The notes: generated by a model from the sequence alone, not told the origin. DNA of 12,150 nucleotides from Methanothrix sp. (GCA_040770465.1 JAXGJB010000053.1:1-12150), one strand, 5' to 3'; numbered from the stretch's first letter, positions 52-8,060 are shown. Program-made: numbers and translations.

Positions 52-1062
52 ATGGTCCGGAAGCCCCGGAAGGTCGAGACGATCAGGCCGGCAGAAGAGG
101 TTATTGCCCGCCTGGATGCGCTTTACATGGCCTGCCCGAAATGCCCGAGAGAGCCCGCTCTTGATAAGGCCGCGAGCTTCGCGAGGCTCGCCGCGATGGA
201 AGGGCGCCGGCAACGGTGTTCCGGCTGCGGGAGGGCGCCCCTGGACCTGGTGATGGTCGAGGCGATGGAGGTCCTCGTCGACCACAACCTGCGAAGCCGG
301 ACCGACCCCCTCCGGTCGATCGGCTGGCCCCTTGTGGAGGTGGGCTACCCTCTGGCCTACCCGCCGAGGCTGGGGCCAGATGAGCTCATCCTGGTCGGAG
401 AAAACCTGACAAAAGAGGCCGCCGCCGAGATCGTCGAACGAGTCCCGGAAGTCAAGGGCGTCATCCGGGGCGGCGGCGTCCCCGGCGTCGCAGATCTCCG
501 GGCCGCGCCCACCCGCTGGGATCTCCTGGCGGGCTCGGACCTCCGCTGCGACGTCATCAGCTCCCTAATCGGCGAGCTTGTGATCTACAAGCATCAGTCA
601 AAAATACACGTCGAGTTTCCCCGCCAGGCAGCTCCGAAGATGAAGATCCTGGAGGAGCTGTACTTCCGGGGTAAGTTGACCACAATCGCCGACGTCCTCT
701 GCGGCCCCGGGACCCTGGGCCTTGTGGCCGCCCTCGCCGGCGCGGAGCGGGTCGTCCTGAACGACGCCTGGCTTCCGGCGGTGGAGGACGCCATCCTGAA
801 CCTGGAGGCGAACCGGTCGATCCTGGGGATCGAGAAGATCGAGCGTCACAAGACCCCGGCGGGCGAGGTCGGCGCGGAGCCGAGCCTCGTGGCGGAGGCA
901 GAGGGCGAAACTTGCAAAATTGAGGTCTACTTCGGCGATGCCGAGAGGCTATTCTCGCGGGCGGAGCCTGTGGACCTCTGCCTCGTGGACCCCTTTCCTG
1001 GGATGAAGTACGACCGGATCGCCGAGGCGTGCAGGGTCTGCGGTGAGATCGTGATCGTGTAG
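52..1062 (+). CDS. Putative class I SAM-dependent methyltransferase with N-terminal Cys4 (Zn-ribbon-like) region
   Basis: 336-aa ORF with high-GC host-like codon usage. Two CxxC motifs (CPKC, CSGC). Gly-rich SAM-binding motif I variant IADVLCGPGTLG, followed by VVLND (motif II), YFGDA and CLVDPF. Substrate unknown. Confidence 0.75.
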   Translation: MVRKPRKVETIRPAEEVIARLDALYMACPKCPREPALDKAASFARLAAMEGRRQRCSGCGRAPLDLVMVEAMEVLVDHNLRSRTDPLRSIGWPLVEVGYPLAYPPRLGPDELILVGENLTKEAAAEIVERVPEVKGVIRGGGVPGVADLRAAPTRWDLLAGSDLRCDVISSLIGELVIYKHQSKIHVEFPRQAAPKMKILEELYFRGKLTTIADVLCGPGTLGLVAALAGAERVVLNDAWLPAVEDAILNLEANRSILGIEKIERHKTPAGEVGAEPSLVAEAEGETCKIEVYFGDAERLFSRAEPVDLCLVDPFPGMKYDRIAEACRVCGEIVIV

Positions 1063-1066
1063 GAGC

Positions 1067-1450
1067 TCATCGGCGGAGAGATTCCAGGTTATTCCGTACA
1101 ATTTTAGTGGTGGGGTGGTCCTCGCCCAAATTGTTTAGGCATATCTTCAGCCCACATTCCGCACCTTGAGTTTTGAAATTGGTATTTTTACTGCTATCGA
1201 TTTATGATATTAAATTCAATAAATTTAATTTATTAAGCTATTTTAATTTGTTTACGTTGACATTATGTTGATTATTCCTCGCAACGTGACATGATGAGAT
1301 ACCCGCTCAATAGGGAGTCGGCAGTAAGCAGACATAATATTAATGTAGATGAATAGCTAGATTTATAATTATATTAGTGGAATCGCTAGCTAGCAAAATA
1401 TCCGACTTAGGAAGTTAAGGTGCGGAATGTGGGTTCAGGGCCCGCTCGTA
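1067..1450 (-). pseudogene. Orphan TPR C-terminal cap fragment, split by the MITE (segments 1450-1439 and 1150-1067)
   Basis: After removing 1151-1438 (MITE plus one TSD copy), the minus strand reads YERALKICLNNLGEDHPTTKIVRNNLESLRR* (TGA at 1069-1067). It matches the C-terminus of the 3277-6072 protein (YERSLKIFQMRLGDENPYTIAVLNNLESIKR) at 17/31 residues with no gaps. Confidence 0.85.
1151..1433. mobile_element. 283-bp non-autonomous MITE, probably IS1634-related
   Basis: Perfect 17-bp terminal inverted repeats CCCACATTCCGCACCTT (1151-1167) / AAGGTGCGGAATGTGGG (1417-1433). 5-bp direct target duplication TTCAG (1146-1150, 1434-1438). AT-rich non-coding interior. TIR resembles the neighbouring IS ends (CCnnCtTTCCGCA). 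Removal restores an open reading frame. Confidence 0.92.
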
Positions 1451-1474
1451 TATCTGTCTCAAGGTAGCATCAAC

Positions 1475-3196
1475 CCATCTTTCCGCACTAACGGTCCTAT
1501 TTCTAGACATTTTCGCCAGAATTTATAGCGAAGATTTATTAAATATCCCGTTATATCCGATTTTTAGGAGTAGCGAGTATGGAGATAAGGACACTTCCTC
1601 TTGATCATTTAGGTTTAGTTGCAGGTGTATTTGATCAGCTCGATATCGCAGATCTTATCGATAACCGGATTCCAAAGCTCAGAAATCACAATCTTGAGCA
1701 TTCAAAAATCATAAAGGCGATGATCTTAAATGGTCTTGGCTATGTCGGCCAGAGATTATATCTATTCCCAGAATTTTATGAGAAACTCCCCATCGAGAGG
1801 TTACTTGGTAATGGTGTCACCGCAGCAGATCTGAATGACGATGCCCTCGGCAGAACTCTTGATGCGATTTTCGCCTACGGCCCTACTGAACTCTTCAACG
1901 ATATATCTTTGAAGGTAATGAGTCAGCTTGATCTTGGGGTTCAACGGCTTCATGCTGATACTACGAGCTTCAGTGTCCAGGGGAATTACGAGAGTCCCAG
2001 TGGTCGGAACGCTATCGAGATAACCCTTGGCCATTCCAAAGACGGACGGATGGATTTGAAGCAATTCGTGCTGGGATTGGTTACAAACCAGGACGGCATA
2101 CCTCTATTTGCCAAAGCTCATTCCGGAAACGCCTCGGATAAAAACACGATCATGGAATCATTTCTGAAAGTTAAGAAAAGCCTCAACCTTGATGATCCTG
2201 CATATTATATAGCAGATAGTGCGGTCTATAGTGCAAAAAATATTCAACAGCTTGGAACCGAGACGCTCTGGATAACTCGCGTACCAGCAACGTTAACCGA
2301 GTGTAAAACGCTAATTGATAGCGATTTAGGTATGATTCAGTGCTCCGACCCAAGATATAACTGCTATTCAACAACCTCAAACTATGGAGATATATTTCAA
2401 AGATGGGTCGTGTATCAATCTAAGCCGATGATGGAGAGAGCGAAGAAGACTTTCGAAAAGCGGCTCGAAAAAGAAGATCGCATAGCTGAAAGAGAACTGG
2501 CAAAACTCCGCCGTCGAGAGTTCGCCTGTGAAGCAGATGCAAGAAAAGAGGCTGAAATCTGGCTTGGAGAACATCCATTACACAAGTTTAAGGATTTATC
2601 CGTTAGAATCGTCGCCAAAAGATCGGATAAAAAGAGGGGACGACCTAAGAATGGTGAAAAGCTCATTGAAGTTCATTTAATTGAGGCTCAGATAGAATTT
2701 GACGAAGATAAGGTGATAAAAGAAAAATCAAGGCTTGGAAGGTTCATCTTAGCCACAAACGACCTCAATATAGATCCTGATACCATTCTGAGCTATTATA
2801 AGGGGCAACAAGCGGTCGAACAGGGGTTCAGATTCCTGAAAGATAAGAGCTTCCGCGTCTCGGAAGTGTATCTCAAGAAAGAAGAGCGCATTGAGGCTCT
2901 GGCCATGATCATGGTCCTGACTCTCATGATATATTCTATCGCGGAGTGGTTGATAAGAAAGCGAATGCAAGAAACGGGTGAGACAGTGCCAAACCAGCTA
3001 AAGAAGCCTACCCAAAGGCCAACATTCAAATGGATAGCGTTTCTGTTCATGGGTGTAGCTGAAGTAACCATATGGTTGAATGGGGAAATGCATCTATAGA
3101 TAGCGAATCTGAATGATGATCTTATTAAGATTATAAGACTGCTGGGGCGGGACTGCGAAAAATACTATGATTTGGAGCGTTGATGCGGAAAGCCGG
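1475..3196 (+). mobile_element. IS1634-family insertion sequence (1722 bp)
   Basis: Imperfect TIRs CCATCTTTCCGCA (1475-1487) / TGCGGAAAGCCGG (3184-3196), extendable to 17/22 matches. 6-bp target duplication ATCAAC (1469-1474, 3197-3202). Single transposase ORF. GC clearly lower than the flanking host genes. Confidence 0.92.
1579..3099 (+). CDS. IS1634-family DDE transposase; truncated by in-frame TAG at 3097-3099, with the frame continuing to 3183
   Basis: Family motifs LDHLGLVAG, LNDDALGRTLD, LHADTTS (D), GHSKDGRMDLKQ, IADSA (D), GRFILATN and VEQGFRFLK (E). AGGAG RBS at 1566-1570; TATA-like TTTATTAA at 1536-1543. Confidence 0.92.
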   Translation: MEIRTLPLDHLGLVAGVFDQLDIADLIDNRIPKLRNHNLEHSKIIKAMILNGLGYVGQRLYLFPEFYEKLPIERLLGNGVTAADLNDDALGRTLDAIFAYGPTELFNDISLKVMSQLDLGVQRLHADTTSFSVQGNYESPSGRNAIEITLGHSKDGRMDLKQFVLGLVTNQDGIPLFAKAHSGNASDKNTIMESFLKVKKSLNLDDPAYYIADSAVYSAKNIQQLGTETLWITRVPATLTECKTLIDSDLGMIQCSDPRYNCYSTTSNYGDIFQRWVVYQSKPMMERAKKTFEKRLEKEDRIAERELAKLRRREFACEADARKEAEIWLGEHPLHKFKDLSVRIVAKRSDKKRGRPKNGEKLIEVHLIEAQIEFDEDKVIKEKSRLGRFILATNDLNIDPDTILSYYKGQQAVEQGFRFLKDKSFRVSEVYLKKEERIEALAMIMVLTLMIYSIAEWLIRKRMQETGETVPNQLKKPTQRPTFKWIAFLFMGVAEVTIWLNGEMHL

Positions 3197-3276
3197 ATCA
3201 ACCATAGACAGAAGAGTTATAATGGTTTCATGAAATGGTTTTGCGCCAAATGGGATGACATTCTACGCGATAGATG

Positions 3277-6072
3277 CTACAAACGACGCTTAATCGACTC
3301 GAGATTATTTAGCACAGCTATCGTGTAAGGATTTTCATCACCTAAACGCATCTGGAATATCTTCAGGCTTCTCTCGTAATTCTCTTTGGCACCATCGAGG
3401 TCTCGATTCAGCGATAAGATGTTACCGAGGCCATTGAGTGTCGCGGCCATGTCAAGATTATCAGAGTCGGGGCCGAAGAATGCTTCCAGAATTTTCAAAG
3501 CCCTCTGGAAGCTATCTTTGGCACCCCCTAAATCACCTTTTTCGCCTAGGACATTCCCAAGTCCGATGAGCGCCGATGCCACATCAGGATGGTTGGAATT
3601 GGGGCCATAGATCGTCTCATAGATCAATAGAGCCTTATCTAAGGCAGATTTTGCACCATTGAGGTCGTGACTAGCTTGCAATACCATGCCTAAGTTCGTA
3701 AGAGTCAGGGCCATGGCAGGGTGGGGAAAGTCGGGGTAGACATCCTCATAAATCAACAAAGCCTTCTCGTAGCACTCCTTGGCTCCATCAACGTCACCCT
3801 TCTGGACGAGGACATTCCCGAGTCCAACAAACGTCGATGCTACATCAGGATGGCTGGAGTCGAAGCCGTAGATCTCCTTATAGATCGATAGAGCCTTTGC
3901 ATAGCACTCCTTGGCCCCATCGAAGTCGCCTTTTGCAAATAGGACTTCACCAAAACCATGAACTGCCGATGCCACATCGGGGCGGTTGGATTCAGGCCCA
4001 TAGACCTCCTCATAGATCGACAGAGCCCTCCCGTAACTTTTTTCGGCTTCTGCGAGGTTATTGCTAGCTAGCAGGACCGAGCCGAGGTTTATGAGTGCTA
4101 AGGCCACGTCAATGTGATTGGAGTCAGGACCATAGACATCATTGTAAATCGCTATAGCCTTATCAAAACAAGATTTGGCGCCATCTGGATCTCTATTATC
4201 GGATAGGACGGTACCGAGATTCATTAACGTCGATGCCACATCAGGATGGTTGGAGTCATGCCCATAAATTGCTTTTTTGATCTCCAGAGCTTTCTCGTAA
4301 CTAATCTTGGCTTCCTCGAAGTTGCCTTTCTGTCGTAAGACATTACCCAGGTTCCCGAGCACTTTTGCCATACCAGGATGATTGGAGTAGGATCCGTTGA
4401 ATGCTTCAAAAGTCGCCAGAGCCTTATCGAAAGCAACTTTGGAAGCATCGAATTCGGCACGCATTCCTAAATAAATGCCAACCTGGTTCAGAAGGCGACT
4501 GTATGATTCGTGAACATCTTCAAGCCTGACTACATGTTTCGACACGGCCAGAGCATGGGGCAACATGAAAGAGCACTCTGGCCAGGTCTGCGGGTCGTCA
4601 ATGCCTTGAGGAAAGGAGTTGGCCACAAGCAGCACTGCAGCTTCGCCCCATATTTTCCGCTCTTCGTTTGACAATCGATCACGCGTCACGGTCTGGACGA
4701 GCCGATGGACAGAGAGACTTTCGGGAGTCGCGTTTATCAGCGAGTATCGTTGAAGGGTGTCCACTGCCCGATTCACCGCCAGCTTATCAGCCAGCGATTC
4801 CGGAAGATGTCCATTTCCATCGCTGAAGAGCTTTCTGGGGATGTCGTCGGGAGCGAGGAACGCGCAGAGGTTCAAGAGATCCGCACCCACAGCTGCCTCC
4901 TCTTTGACTCGATTCATCGAAACCGTCCAGGCGGTCTCCACCTTCTCCCGATAGCTTTCTGGTTTCTTCTCGTCTTTCCAAAGCTCATTTCGACGGGTTT
5001 GGAAGAGCTCCAGATAATCGGCTAGCGTGATTTTAGTTGCCAGGATGTACGCAGCCGCCTGCTCCAGGGCCAAGGGGAGATCGCCGAGGGCGTCAGCAAG
5101 GGCGTCGGCCCCGCCATGCTGCCCGGTCCGGCTCTGGAGGAACTCGATCGACTCTTCCCGGCTGAAAACGTCGACAAGAAGCGGCTTTGCGGTGCCGCCC
5201 CAGTTCGGGTTTCTGGAGGTGATGATGACGTGACCTCTGCCGGTCCGGGGGAGATAATCTTTCAGATCTTCGGGCTCCTGGGCGTTATCGAAAACGAGGA
5301 GCCAGCCCCCGTTCTGCTCCAGCCAGCACCTAACGGCCTCGACGATGACCCTCTGGTCCTTTGCGTTCTTCTCGGGGAGGTCGAGCCTCGCGGCCAGGCC
5401 CGCGTAATCGGCGGCCAGGGTGGAGGGCTCCTCGGACCGGACCCACCAGACGACCTGGTAATCGTCGGCGTGGCGGTAGGAGTACTCCAGGGCGAGCTGG
5501 GTCTTGCCGACGCCGCCGAGGCCGGTGATGGCAGAGGTCTGGGTGAAGGCGGCGCGCTCTCCGGAGGCGAGGGCTTCGGAGAGGCGGTCGAGCAGGTCCA
5601 CACGGCCGGTGAAGTTGGGGTTGTGGGGGTGCGGTATGTTGTTGATCTTGCCGAGAGTTTTTTCTGCTACAGCTGGTTCTTTTGGGCTGGGATACGTGAT
5701 GTGCACGCCGCCCTCGATACGATCGGACTTTATCGTCGGGCATTGATCGCCAAAAGATATTGCGCTGTCTTTCACATTCTCGACGATGTTACCGCCATCA
5801 TCTGACGGGACTTTTTTGCCCCGTCTCCGGAAAAATGCGTAAAGCACTGTTAGACCAACTAAAATGCCCACTAATTTGTCGACATTATCAAGCAGATCAC
5901 TATCCTCTTTGTCGGGAATATCTGCCTTCGCAATTGGAGCCACTGTTTGATTCGTGCCGTTCTCGCCTCCCTGCGCCTGGGCCAGCGCGGTCGCTGCCAG
6001 AGACAGCATCATCAGCGCCAGGACGATGAGCGGCTTCGGTCTCGTCAGGACTCCTCCAACACTGCCGTTCAA
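3277..6072 (-). CDS. NLR-like STAND NTPase: signal peptide + single TM + NB-ARC + TPR array
   Basis: PNFTGR pre-P-loop motif, Walker A GLGGVGKT (~5500-5523), Walker B WLLVFDNA, sensor-1 VIITSR, GDLPLAL (GxP) and SVHRLVQ (MHD-like). About 9 TPRs follow. The N-terminus has a hydrophobic signal (LIVLALMMLSLAATALA) and a TM (LVGILVGLTVLYAFF) followed by RRRGKK. The TTG start is uncertain; a downstream ATG is possible. Confidence 0.9.
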   Translation of the reverse strand: MNGSVGGVLTRPKPLIVLALMMLSLAATALAQAQGGENGTNQTVAPIAKADIPDKEDSDLLDNVDKLVGILVGLTVLYAFFRRRGKKVPSDDGGNIVENVKDSAISFGDQCPTIKSDRIEGGVHITYPSPKEPAVAEKTLGKINNIPHPHNPNFTGRVDLLDRLSEALASGERAAFTQTSAITGLGGVGKTQLALEYSYRHADDYQVVWWVRSEEPSTLAADYAGLAARLDLPEKNAKDQRVIVEAVRCWLEQNGGWLLVFDNAQEPEDLKDYLPRTGRGHVIITSRNPNWGGTAKPLLVDVFSREESIEFLQSRTGQHGGADALADALGDLPLALEQAAAYILATKITLADYLELFQTRRNELWKDEKKPESYREKVETAWTVSMNRVKEEAAVGADLLNLCAFLAPDDIPRKLFSDGNGHLPESLADKLAVNRAVDTLQRYSLINATPESLSVHRLVQTVTRDRLSNEERKIWGEAAVLLVANSFPQGIDDPQTWPECSFMLPHALAVSKHVVRLEDVHESYSRLLNQVGIYLGMRAEFDASKVAFDKALATFEAFNGSYSNHPGMAKVLGNLGNVLRQKGNFEEAKISYEKALEIKKAIYGHDSNHPDVASTLMNLGTVLSDNRDPDGAKSCFDKAIAIYNDVYGPDSNHIDVALALINLGSVLLASNNLAEAEKSYGRALSIYEEVYGPESNRPDVASAVHGFGEVLFAKGDFDGAKECYAKALSIYKEIYGFDSSHPDVASTFVGLGNVLVQKGDVDGAKECYEKALLIYEDVYPDFPHPAMALTLTNLGMVLQASHDLNGAKSALDKALLIYETIYGPNSNHPDVASALIGLGNVLGEKGDLGGAKDSFQRALKILEAFFGPDSDNLDMAATLNGLGNILSLNRDLDGAKENYERSLKIFQMRLGDENPYTIAVLNNLESIKRRL
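3280..4512 (-). repeat. Intragenic TPR tandem array, ~9 units of mostly 44 aa (132 bp)
   Basis: Consensus HPDVAxxLxNLGxVLxxxGDxxGAKxxYxKALxIYxxxYGPDSN. An identical 24-mer CGATGCCACATCAGGATGGTTGGA occurs at 3574-3597 and 4231-4254, 657 bp (5 units) apart. Confidence 0.9.
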
Positions 6073-6149
6073 TCCTCAATCTACAAAAAGCTTATGTAAG
6101 TTCCTCAAGCTTCCGATCGCCCCGCCCATCACCGCCGCCGAGGGCGAGC

Positions 6150-6248
6150 CGGATCGTCACGAACGACACCTGACTCCCGGCGGAGGAGAACGCCATCCTC
6201 AACCTGGAGGCGAACCGGTCAGTTCTGGGGATCGAGAAGATCGAGCGG
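6150..6248 (+). pseudogene. Decayed internal fragment of the 52-1062 methyltransferase gene (direct repeat of 748-846)
   Basis: 86/99 nt identical by hand alignment, no gaps. Translates RIVTNDT*LPAEENAILNLEANRSVLGIEKIER versus RVVLNDAWLPAVEDAILNLEANRSILGIEKIER, with TGG changed to TGA at 6171-6173. Confidence 0.9.
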
Positions 6249-6300
6249 CTGGGGGAAAATAAATTAAGCCGATAGTCCCGATTTTCCTCGGGATGTAGAA

Positions 6301-7839
6301 ATGAGCTTTGGCATAAGCATAACGAGAATCGGTGTCTTAAAGTGCGCTGCGGCGCTGGTGATCGTCTCAATTCTTTTAATTCCTGTCTCCGTTGCAGACG
6401 AGGCAGGCCAGACGGATTCCGAATCGGGAAAAGACGATCACGTCAAGGCAACGGTCAAAGGCATCGGCTGGAAGAATGCCGTGATGATTAATATGCCCGA
6501 GAGCGAAAGCCCCAACTCCTCCAGCGCGGGAGGGGCGGGTGAGAGCCTCTCGACCTCAGCCGGCAGCCGCAACGATTCGTCGTCGGGAACTTCCAGCGAG
6601 GGAGAAGTGTTGGTGCCCCATTGGATGGTCGGGACTAGAAACGGGACCGTAGGCTTATCGGTCCTGGAAACGGAAGACGGCGGCTATATCGTCCTTGGGG
6701 ACGTCTTCGAGTACGAGGCCTTCGGACCGGTGATGGACTCCAGGGATATCCTGCTTTTGAAGACCGATTCTAACGGGAGCGAGGAGTGGAACAGGACCAT
6801 TGGAGGAGATGACTGGGATTATGGATCCTCGATTCAAAAGACAAGAGACGGGGGCTACATAATCGCTGGGCTCACAAAATCATACGGGATCTCCGGGCCT
6901 GACGAGCGATTACCGGACATCTGGCTGATAAGAACCGATTCAAACGGAACCGAGCTTTGGAGCAGGACCTTAGGCGTCAGATCCTTCGGTGGCCCCGAAT
7001 TCGACGCTGGACTCTTCGCCCGAGAAACGTTGGATGGCGGCTATGCCGTCGCCAGCAACAAATATAGACCTGACGATGACGGGCTGGACGCCTGGATTAT
7101 AAAAACCGACCCTTACGGAGTCGAAGAATGGGATAGAACGATCGGAGACAGAGTCCGGGGAATGTTGGTCTCGGCCCTGGTGACCGACGAGGGCGAATAC
7201 CTCCTTCTCATCAACGAAAGACCCCCCGACGACGACTCCTTAAGACGCGTCATGCTGATCAAGACCGATCAGGAAGGAAACGATATCTGGACCACGGAAT
7301 TTGAGGGAACAGGCGGCCAGTCCGGCCAAATCCTCAGGGCGAGCGAAGATGGAGGATACACCGCTGGAGGCTACGTCGGAGGTTTTAGATCACCCTGGTT
7401 GGCAAAGGCGGACTCCGAAGGAAATACGGTCTGGAAATGGGATCTGAACAGCCTCTTCAACCTGGACCCCGACCTGACCGTCTTCATATCGGAAGACGGA
7501 CTCAGCAAAGGCATCGCCACTCCGAAGTGGAATATCTCCTATGAGCTGTACGATTTCCAGGCGACGGTGGACGGAGGCTACATAATCCTCAGCAGAAACC
7601 CGGCCGGCGAGGTCTGCTTGACGAAATTGAATCCCGGCGGGGTCATGGTGTGGAAAAACACCTACAGCAAGTCCGATATAGGCTTGGGAAACTCGGTTAT
7701 GGAAACCAGTGACGGAGGCTACATCATCACCGGATCCCGGGACAACGACCTCTGCCTCATGAAGACCGATTCGGAAGGCGTCCAGGAGTGGAACAGGATA
7801 TTCCTCAGCGTTCCAGGCGGTCTTGAAATCGAGACCTAA
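6301..7839 (+). CDS. Secreted/cell-surface beta-propeller repeat protein
   Basis: N-terminal signal peptide (AAALVIVSILLIPVSVA), Ser/Gly-rich linker, then 7 repeats of T.DGGY(I/A)..G...L.KTD..G...W. Several N-x-S/T sequons. No C-terminal TM anchor. Confidence 0.8.
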   Translation: MSFGISITRIGVLKCAAALVIVSILLIPVSVADEAGQTDSESGKDDHVKATVKGIGWKNAVMINMPESESPNSSSAGGAGESLSTSAGSRNDSSSGTSSEGEVLVPHWMVGTRNGTVGLSVLETEDGGYIVLGDVFEYEAFGPVMDSRDILLLKTDSNGSEEWNRTIGGDDWDYGSSIQKTRDGGYIIAGLTKSYGISGPDERLPDIWLIRTDSNGTELWSRTLGVRSFGGPEFDAGLFARETLDGGYAVASNKYRPDDDGLDAWIIKTDPYGVEEWDRTIGDRVRGMLVSALVTDEGEYLLLINERPPDDDSLRRVMLIKTDQEGNDIWTTEFEGTGGQSGQILRASEDGGYTAGGYVGGFRSPWLAKADSEGNTVWKWDLNSLFNLDPDLTVFISEDGLSKGIATPKWNISYELYDFQATVDGGYIILSRNPAGEVCLTKLNPGGVMVWKNTYSKSDIGLGNSVMETSDGGYIITGSRDNDLCLMKTDSEGVQEWNRIFLSVPGGLEIET

Positions 7840-7904
7840 AAACGGCCCTGCCGATGATGCCAGCCGCGCAGAATTCCGCCGGTCTCTAATGTGTACCTGC
7901 TGGG

Positions 7905-7925
7905 CTTCACCTTCCACTTCTTTTT
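7905..7925 (+). terminator. Possible archaeal pyrimidine/oligo-T terminator of the beta-propeller gene
   Basis: CTTCACCTTCCACTTCTTTTT about 65 nt after the stop codon. Confidence 0.35.
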
Positions 7926-8060
7926 GGCGATAAATCAACGATAGTTCGCCCGGAACGCGGCGAATGGCCCCGCGCCGTCTTTGCCGGGAAAGGGATGGTC
8001 GCGCCGCCGGGGGGGAGGCGACGATGGGGCGCGGGGGCCGATCACGGCAGCGCCGCAGAG

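Follow-up and report, generated by a model that had tools for sequence, protein, structure and literature searches.

A candidate membrane-anchored NLR-like protein with an exchangeable N-terminal module in the archaeon Methanothrix

The window analysed here is the whole of contig C53 (12,150 bp; JAXGJB010000053.1:1-12150) from the Methanothrix sp. genome assembly GCA_040770465.1, which totals 2.54 Mb in 66 contigs, is 94.85% complete, and has a GC content of 57.4%. On the minus strand it contains a gene for an NLR-like STAND protein, with a short membrane module at the N-terminus, ahead of its NB-ARC and TPR regions. As judged from sequence comparisons, this N-terminal module is a lineage-specific exchangeable cassette between two fixed flanks–a conserved 5' block on one side, and the NB-ARC domain on the other. 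The mechanism that we favour, while giving it slightly less than an even chance, is that the gene product is a membrane-anchored NTPase whose oligomerisation bundles its transmembrane (TM) helices and damages the membrane. NLR-like STANDs represent an immune logic that is common to plants, animals, fungi and bacteria. To our knowledge, almost nothing is known about those of archaea, and most of the outputs that have been studied are soluble enzymes. The gene and its parts, with residues counted from the TTG codon at 6072, are as follows.

3277-6072, minus strand: the whole open reading frame (ORF), 931 amino acids if the TTG at 6072 is the start; the stop codon is at 3277-3279.
5971-6072, minus strand: signal-peptide-like leader, residues 1-34, with an n-region containing R11 and K13, a hydrophobic core, and ALA-Q; present in full only if the start is upstream of codon 21.
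5878-5970, minus strand: acidic stub, residues 35-65, predicted to be extracytoplasmic, with a net charge of -6 (charge count) and sequons at N38 (NGT) and N41 (NQT).
5830-5877, minus strand: single predicted TM helix, residues 66-81, containing G69xxxG73 (hydropathy; AlphaFold2 helix at 63-85).
5812-5829, minus strand: basic stop-transfer cluster RRRGKK, residues 82-87 (sequence, hydropathy).
5689-5787, minus strand: conserved, predicted cytoplasmic juxtamembrane motif, residues 96-128, with the end ...IEGGVHITYP, found in 19 proteins (this one and 18 homologs); no predicted fold.
5023-5637, minus strand: NB-ARC nucleotide-binding domain, residues ~146-350 (Pfam, alignment, AlphaFold2).
4660-4884, minus strand: DUF7779/winged-helix region, residues 397-471, with VHR at the MHD position, 455-457 (Pfam, alignment).
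3280-4395, minus strand: TPR array of the kinesin light chain (KLC) type, residues ~560-931, the presumed sensor, with low GC content at third codon positions (GC3) (Pfam, sequence matches).

The frame runs for 931 codons without interruption, with TTG as its first codon, and encodes the expected domains, so the ORF picked out in an earlier reading made without database searches (the sequence-only reading) is genuine. The anatomy given there–leader, acidic stub, sequons, TM helix, RRRGKK, NB-ARC and TPRs–is also correct, because Pfam, hydropathy, an alignment of 59 relatives, AlphaFold2, Foldseek and sequence matches agree on it. Kyte-Doolittle analysis gave two hydrophobic peaks within residues 1-100, in segments starting at residues 12-17 (the leader) and 66-68 (the TM core, LVGILVGLTVLYAFF); the remaining 15-residue peak of comparable height, starting at 654-656, lies within a TPR helix. 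Residues 1-150 have no Pfam domain match, enzymatic or other, and a protein atlas search with the same residues returned no usable match, in agreement with the view that the N-terminus carries no recognisable enzymatic domain.

The cytoplasmic part is, on sequence and modelled structure, a canonical NB-ARC/winged-helix/TPR switch. The Pfam NB-ARC match (PF00931, residues 161-318) is marginal but above threshold, at 26.7 bits against a cut-off of 23.5. Walker A is GLGGVGKT at residues 184-191 (5500-5523), Walker B lies around F261-D262, TSR is found at 285-287, and a GxP/LPL motif at 332-333. Ten of these positions–G186, G187, G189, K190, T191, D262, T285-S286 and L332-P333–are invariant in the 59 aligned sequences, as is H456 within VHR, which bears out the identification of an NB-ARC/TPR STAND protein with VHR at the MHD position. 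By sequence, the NB-ARC domain matches AfsR (8k60) with an E-value of 4e-9. The TPR array has about eight KLC-type TPR pairs; Pfam TPR_12 (E = 5.5e-79) and TPR_10 (E = 7.1e-66) each match seven stretches of the protein, and KLC TPR structures match by sequence at E = 5e-27. AlphaFold2 is confident for residues 140-931, and Foldseek matched the model best to the STAND-TPR protein 6mfv_A. Identity to the closest relative, P0003, is 83-95% over residues 60-480 versus 36-48% in the TPRs. GC3 changes from part to part of the gene (leader, 0.70; stub and TM, 0.44; NB-ARC domain, 0.74-0.92; TPRs, 0.38-0.66), and this mosaic suggests that its parts have different origins.

We compared the region ahead of the switch among the 120 best database matches, which include the window's own protein. 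Hydrophobic N-terminal segments ahead of the NPNFTGR junction are present in 38 of the 120, and the other 82, without such segments, mostly begin with a TIR domain or with a helical region of ~104 amino acids. The frequency of such segments shows that this arrangement did not arise by accident. Enzymatic effectors had been said to be usual in this slot, and TIR (PF13676) or PNP (PF01048) domains do precede the same NPNFTGR junction in many relatives. One example comes from the same genome: the paralog on contig C1 (L035 8028-10637, plus strand; 869-882 amino acids, between NfeD-like and MCM genes) has a TIR domain in the N-terminal slot ahead of its NB-ARC-TPR body, and is a case of domain swapping at this junction.

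A filter for a leader plus a TM segment retained 29 proteins: the window protein and 28 homologs, including two paralogs from its own genome (a few obvious members, among them P0006-P0008, fell below the thresholds and were left out). The stubs of these proteins are 24-56 amino acids long (median 34) and carry a net negative charge in all 29, whereas the 12 residues that follow the TM have a net positive charge in 27; at least one sequon is present in the stub in 25. Hydropathy and these charge counts support an N-out/C-in orientation, with the stub outside and the NB-ARC and TPR regions predicted to be cytoplasmic. A type I topology had been proposed earlier; by the charge rule its cytoplasmic NB-ARC/TPR side holds up, but its cleaved signal peptide is unproven. 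By eye we distinguished at least six different TM sequences, all in frame and each followed by basic residues. A start downstream of the TM is therefore excluded, since each cassette type retains the in-frame TM and the basic cluster.

Two comparisons bear on how the module has evolved. Within cassette type A (seven sequences) the TM segment (residues 64-87) is 87-95% identical, compared with 74-87% for the NB-ARC domain and 58-82% for the stub; this conservation, together with the GxxxG motif, gives a hint, though only a hint, that the TM segment is more than an anchor. When the gene is aligned with the syntenic gene of genome G025, 73-90% of nucleotides are identical in the 5' block and 16-45% over the stretch formed by stub, TM and linker; identity is back at 78-91% once the NB-ARC domain begins. 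Because the low-identity stretch sits between the high-identity 5' block and NB-ARC domain, we interpret it as replacement of a cassette. Across the wider family, N-terminal membrane anchors were flagged in 18 of 150 representatives at 50% identity, of which ~13-14 were convincing after TIR and PNP false positives had been removed by eye. A different STAND protein on contig C31 (L048 1020-3743, plus strand; 907 amino acids) carries two hydrophobic segments at its N-terminus, as well as a linker rich in G, S and N, a P-loop and an array of very regular TPRs. It is a second predicted membrane-anchored STAND in the genome, with an anchor unrelated to that of the C53 protein.

In the mechanism that we favour, the TPR array would recognise a trigger in the cytoplasm, the likeliest being a protein of viral or other foreign origin. 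The NB-ARC domain would then swap ADP for ATP and oligomerise, so that the TM helices, already in place in the membrane, and the juxtamembrane segments come together as a bundle. This bundle would permeabilise or depolarise the membrane, making the TM module the effector, and the affected cell of the filament would be arrested or killed, as abortive infection or programmed cell death. We favour membrane damage because the module sits in the slot that is occupied by TIR in paralogs, because the type A TM is the best conserved segment and contains GxxxG, and because unrelated anchors turn up repeatedly at this position, both in the wider family and on the C31 STAND.

Several observations weigh against this mechanism. 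One TM helix per subunit makes a minimal pore former, and the conservation of the sequons and leader points to some function outside the cytoplasm, which the pore model does not call for. AlphaFold2 found no confident fold for residues 1-136 (predicted local distance difference test score below 50, with helices at 15-24 and 63-85). A word-based search of 623 candidates for the module on shorter proteins or on other sensors gave two matches, both of them fragments of the family (P0123 and P0124). Since this search, which distant versions could escape, found the module on no other type of sensor, the usual hallmark of a shared effector is missing. The sequence-only reading had proposed a check with PADLOC, and this came back negative: in PADLOC-DB v2 the window protein matches no Avs model, only the generic TPR models PDLC01169, PDLC01171 and PDLC02907, and its paralogs and neighbours likewise match no known defence model, only generic TPR ones. 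The genes flanking the C53 copy and its paralogs are housekeeping genes (Cdc48, CbiM, MCM, arginine decarboxylase, NfeD), so the gene does not appear to lie in a classical defence island, although it is flanked by an IS element and varies in presence and arrangement among close relatives. Lastly, a 1-nt deletion in the 5' block of the window copy leaves its expression unproven.

The main rival, which we consider unlikely but serious, is that the TM module is purely a tether or scaffold. It would place the sensor at the membrane (for example where viruses enter or leave the cell, or at the envelope), with the output coming from a recruited partner or from the NB-ARC oligomer. Such a role would suit the juxtamembrane motif, which is kept across at least two TM types in the 19 proteins that have it and could recruit a partner. 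It would also suit the differences in TM sequence between cassette types, which are expected if only hydrophobicity and topology matter, and the conserved leader and sequon, which fit a stable membrane protein and not a latent toxin. However, within one cassette type the TM is conserved as much as the ATPase, or more. No conserved partner gene adjoins the NLR gene; the pair of genes (DUF3307 and a 248-amino-acid protein) found upstream in genomes G027, G025 and G023 has been deleted from the window. Nor does the 94.85%-complete genome hold a second copy of the juxtamembrane motif: regular-expression and hidden Markov model (HMM) searches found only the gene itself (HMM E = 3.5e-30; next best E = 0.034). 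The residues of this motif alternate as in a strand, and it may resemble BASS-type or NLR-associated amyloid motifs. A paired amyloid motif of the BASS/Bell type was rejected, as neither search gave a second copy in the genome.

The leader has a limited taxonomic range. Of the 105 genomes of the order, 17 gave matches to a 49-residue leader query: besides the genome that holds the window, these comprise 13 of the 15 others in the genus and single genomes from three further genera of the family. In the window's own genome the leader heads three NB-ARC-TPR genes (on contigs C53, C43 and C41) and an orphan ORF of 113 amino acids on C6. The leader-bearing paralogs on C43 (L033) and C41 (L034) lie in a duplicated segment and have Ser/Thr-rich stubs of ~56 amino acids; three small ORFs (162, 132 and 141/106 amino acids), none with a Pfam or PADLOC match, are duplicated along with them. 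Two further family members are a 561-amino-acid paralog on C55, which has no N-terminal domain, and a broken fragment on C32.

With the NB-ARC domain as query, we found 1-6 copies per genome in the 16 genomes of the genus. The form of ~560 amino acids without an N-terminal domain appears to be a core member of an otherwise variable family, because it occurs in all 16 genomes (39-42% identity); the other forms vary. At the syntenic site in G023 the NLR gene has been replaced, and only an orphan 5' block is left. The replacement (L038 6574-7767, plus strand) encodes a membrane protein of 397 amino acids with DUF2254 and pentapeptide repeats. On the strength of the spread in copy number, the rearranged site, the cassette exchange and the divergent TPRs, we regard the gene family as accessory, diversifying and mosaic. 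It does not behave as a widespread housekeeping family unlinked to variable regions, a possibility raised in the sequence-only reading: copy number varies, the gene is replaced in G023, and the window copy is flanked by an IS1634 element and an insertion.

These patterns also bear on a quite unlikely alternative, that the protein is a non-immune signalling STAND–a membrane-bound ATP switch for the physiology of the envelope, sheath or filament, comparable to AfsR or MalT. The regulator AfsR is the closest solved NB-ARC by sequence, the neighbours are housekeeping genes with no match to a defence model, and the paralog of ~560 amino acids belongs to the family core. On the other hand, Pfam detects no DNA-binding or other output domain in the protein, and some close relatives have the membrane-anchored type while others do not, with varying copy number. 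TIR-bearing paralogs, hyperdivergent TPRs and exchange of cassettes are, moreover, typical of genes involved in conflict.

Three features at the 5' end of the gene bear on where translation starts.

5975-6057, minus strand: near-invariant 5' block, from GGAGG through the hydrophobic leader to Ala-x-Ala-Gln (nucleotide conservation in 14 distinct loci, including orphans).
6007-6012, minus strand: alternative start ATG ATG (M21, M22); each of the 14 related loci carries ATG, GTG or TTG at one or other of these two codons.
6081-6090, minus strand: A/T-rich TATA-like element upstream of the gene, a putative promoter, common to five related loci; other loci have a second type of upstream sequence.

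The 5'-end alignment was built at the DNA level from 14 distinct copies, of which 4 belong to this genome and 10 to relatives; some of them are orphans with no gene body. The conserved block is ~85-100 nt long and 81-93% identical between copies. In codons 13-21 the third position is not more variable than the others (minor-allele fractions 0.10/0.04/0.03), whereas from codon 22 onward there is the usual excess at third positions (0.14/0.05/0.24); with few changes in total, this shift at codons 21/22 is suggestive only. Relative to the 13 other copies, the window's block is missing 1 nt near 6046-6050, through either a real deletion or an assembly error, and it is because of this deletion that the TTG at 6072 is in frame. 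Most related loci lack a canonical start ahead of codon 21/22: L015, L017 and L024 have no in-frame ATG, GTG or TTG ahead of codon 21/22 in the alignment, L021 has an in-frame TAA just upstream of the leader, and the translated upstream stretches of L018, L023, L025, L026 and L031 are free of Met, Val and Leu from the TATA-like element to the leader. More distant relatives that begin with ATG have their start within or ahead of the hydrophobic core (for example P0018, P0024, P0037 and P0016), and P0173 combines an ATG-started signal peptide with sequons, a TM and a basic cluster. Because of these ATG-started leaders and the architecture of P0173, a genuine signal peptide is probably present in the wider family.

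For the window gene itself we lean slightly towards a start at M21/M22. About 11 hydrophobic residues of the leader would then remain, forming a short hydrophobic N-terminus followed by an acidic N-tail, and the protein would have a single N-out anchor. A start further upstream, or a non-canonical one, would give the full signal peptide, and we see this as a real but lesser prospect. The signal peptide that had been read from the sequence does have a basic n-region, a hydrophobic core and Ala-x-Ala, but since the upstream TTG is not conserved, Sec cleavage, and with it a type I protein in the strict sense, is unproven. ACG (T10), located 7-8 nt past the invariant GGAGG, was considered as a non-canonical start and rejected, its spacing being the sole evidence for it.

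Single-sequence folds of the 5' block from the 14 loci, compared by eye, had no common structure, and an Rfam scan of the whole window gave no matches. Further copies of the block lie at L036 8998-9102, L037 9360-9464, L038 7806-7996 and 9956-10058, and L039 6369-6463, and some copies are orphans. Genomes G027, G025 and G023 have a second copy at a distance of ~2.1 kb upstream of the NLR site; it flanks the DUF3307 and 248-amino-acid gene pair. The block could be either the trace of recombination or an element with a regulatory role. Among assembled contigs from RNA libraries (Logan), one of 248 nt (X1) is an exact match inside the gene at 5372-5619, and another (X2) matches inside it at 4236-4482 with two differences. 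They are a weak hint that the gene is expressed, DNA carry-over being possible. In the same set of assembled contigs none covers the 5' end of the gene, and the transcript start was not located.

The C53 locus is rearranged on both sides of the gene.

1579-3099, plus strand: IS1634-family transposase, 42% GC, between the 3' end of the NLR gene and a convergent gene for a 336-amino-acid protein (NF033559, 385 bits; DUF4277 and DDE_Tnp_1).
6140-7946, no strand assigned: insertion of 1.8 kb upstream of the gene, relative to G027, G025 and G023, holding an ORF for a putatively secreted 512-amino-acid repeat protein.

In G027 and G025 the same 336-amino-acid gene abuts the 3' end of the NLR gene directly. 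The transposase gene is within a low-GC stretch at ~1001-3500 (42-44% GC). Upstream, the ORF at 6301-7839 (plus strand) encodes the 512-amino-acid protein, whose N-terminus resembles a signal peptide and in which DGGY / TDSNG..W motifs recur; Pfam gave no match for it, and the only similarity, a weak one, is to the SBBP beta-propeller lipoprotein family. Positions 6136-6249 are a ~86% copy of part of the 336-amino-acid gene.

These rearrangements raise the possibility, which we think improbable, that the window copy is decaying or is not expressed as read, the full signal peptide being an artefact of a frame shift; the deletion, the IS1634 element and the insertion might have silenced the gene or altered its start. 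The 1-nt deletion brings into frame a TTG that would otherwise be out of frame, the locus has an IS1634 element downstream and an insertion upstream, and orphan 5' blocks or broken copies of the family do exist (C6, C32, L015, L024, L031, P0123 and P0124). Against decay, the 931-codon frame is intact and its end resembles those of relatives, the ATG ATG at codons 21/22 is untouched, and the TATA-like element and 67 nt upstream are kept. The two short RNA-library contigs also count against it, if weakly.

The remaining candidate, a TPR component of an FxSxx-COOH peptide-maturation system, was rejected as very improbable: the NCBIfam model NF040586 (FxSxx_TPR) matches residues 149-927 with 486.7 bits against a cut-off of 300, and several database relatives bear the FxSxx name, but the genome has no FxsB radical SAM/SPASM maturase (TIGR04269) above the cut-off (best score 128.1 bits against 370, and not near the gene), so the name reflects only the generic NB-ARC-TPR body that the model covers.

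If the membrane-damage mechanism is right, the family would be a prokaryotic counterpart of channel-forming resistosomes. A bolder form of it, to which we give rather little credence, is a constitutively inserted archaeal 'resistosome', in which an N-glycosylated stub and TM cassette act as executioner and are exchanged between loci and species via the ~85-nt 5' block and the NB-ARC junction. Under this version the orphan 5' blocks would be footprints or donors of cassette exchange, and a filamentous methanogen would possess a modular membrane death effector diversified by recombination. More generally, the family illustrates how effector cassettes may be swapped between fixed flanks, and it offers a compact test case for whether a minimal inserted TM module can, once oligomerised, execute an immune or cell-death response. 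Methanothrix-like acetoclastic methanogens matter for methane in digesters and wetlands, where virus-host conflict is poorly charted.

The C53 protein can be set beside several known systems. Plant CC-NLR (coiled-coil NLR) resistosome channels, the TM effectors of CBASS and Pycsar, and the CRISPR-associated Cam1 all damage membranes by sensor-driven oligomerisation of short membrane-active helices. They are activated by a nucleotide signal or insert after activation, whereas the C53 helix would be constitutively inserted, with a glycosylatable stub outside. Avs and bacterial NACHT proteins follow the same three-part plan as the C53 protein, with an output module at the N-terminus, a STAND ATPase, and a repeat sensor at the C-terminus. 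A figure legend for the Avs7/Dsr1 families includes TM among the module types, as do the classes of bacterial NACHT proteins, and TM-bearing STANDs are also mentioned for membrane-proximal conflict systems and for STANDs targeted by diversity-generating retroelements. The C53 protein differs from the Avs1-7 and NACHT clades in combining NB-ARC with KLC-type TPRs, in being archaeal, and in having a leader, a glycosylatable stub and a single TM. In the literature searched, which did not extend to subscription journals or supplements, we found no description of a leader/stub/TM NB-ARC-TPR family in Methanothrix or Methanosaeta. The receptor had been called undescribed, and this is true of the particular leader/stub/TM module; because TM-bearing STAND, NACHT and Avs proteins are already in print, the novelty is limited to this variant of the module.

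NLR-like architectures have been described in Methanosarcinales, together with a Bell-domain protein in Methanothrix soehngenii, and NLRs carry short N-terminal motifs next to membrane-targeting effectors (Dyrka et al. 2020, preprint, 10.1101/2020.01.06.895854). The NB-ARC/TPR NLR-like proteins of Methanosarcinales, actinobacteria and cyanobacteria, as far as they are covered there, have the same body as the C53 protein, but in C53 the membrane element is fused to it instead of being supplied by a neighbouring Bell gene. PH0952-type STAND-TPR proteins (6mfv) and AfsR (8k60) are, like the predicted C53 switch, ADP/ATP switches with a TPR sensor; 6mfv and AfsR are soluble and have no membrane module, and AfsR has a DNA-binding output. 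A bacterial antiviral membrane-embedded P-loop NTPase that acts on the membrane or on ions resembles the C53 protein in idea, but belongs to another NTPase family and has another TM arrangement.

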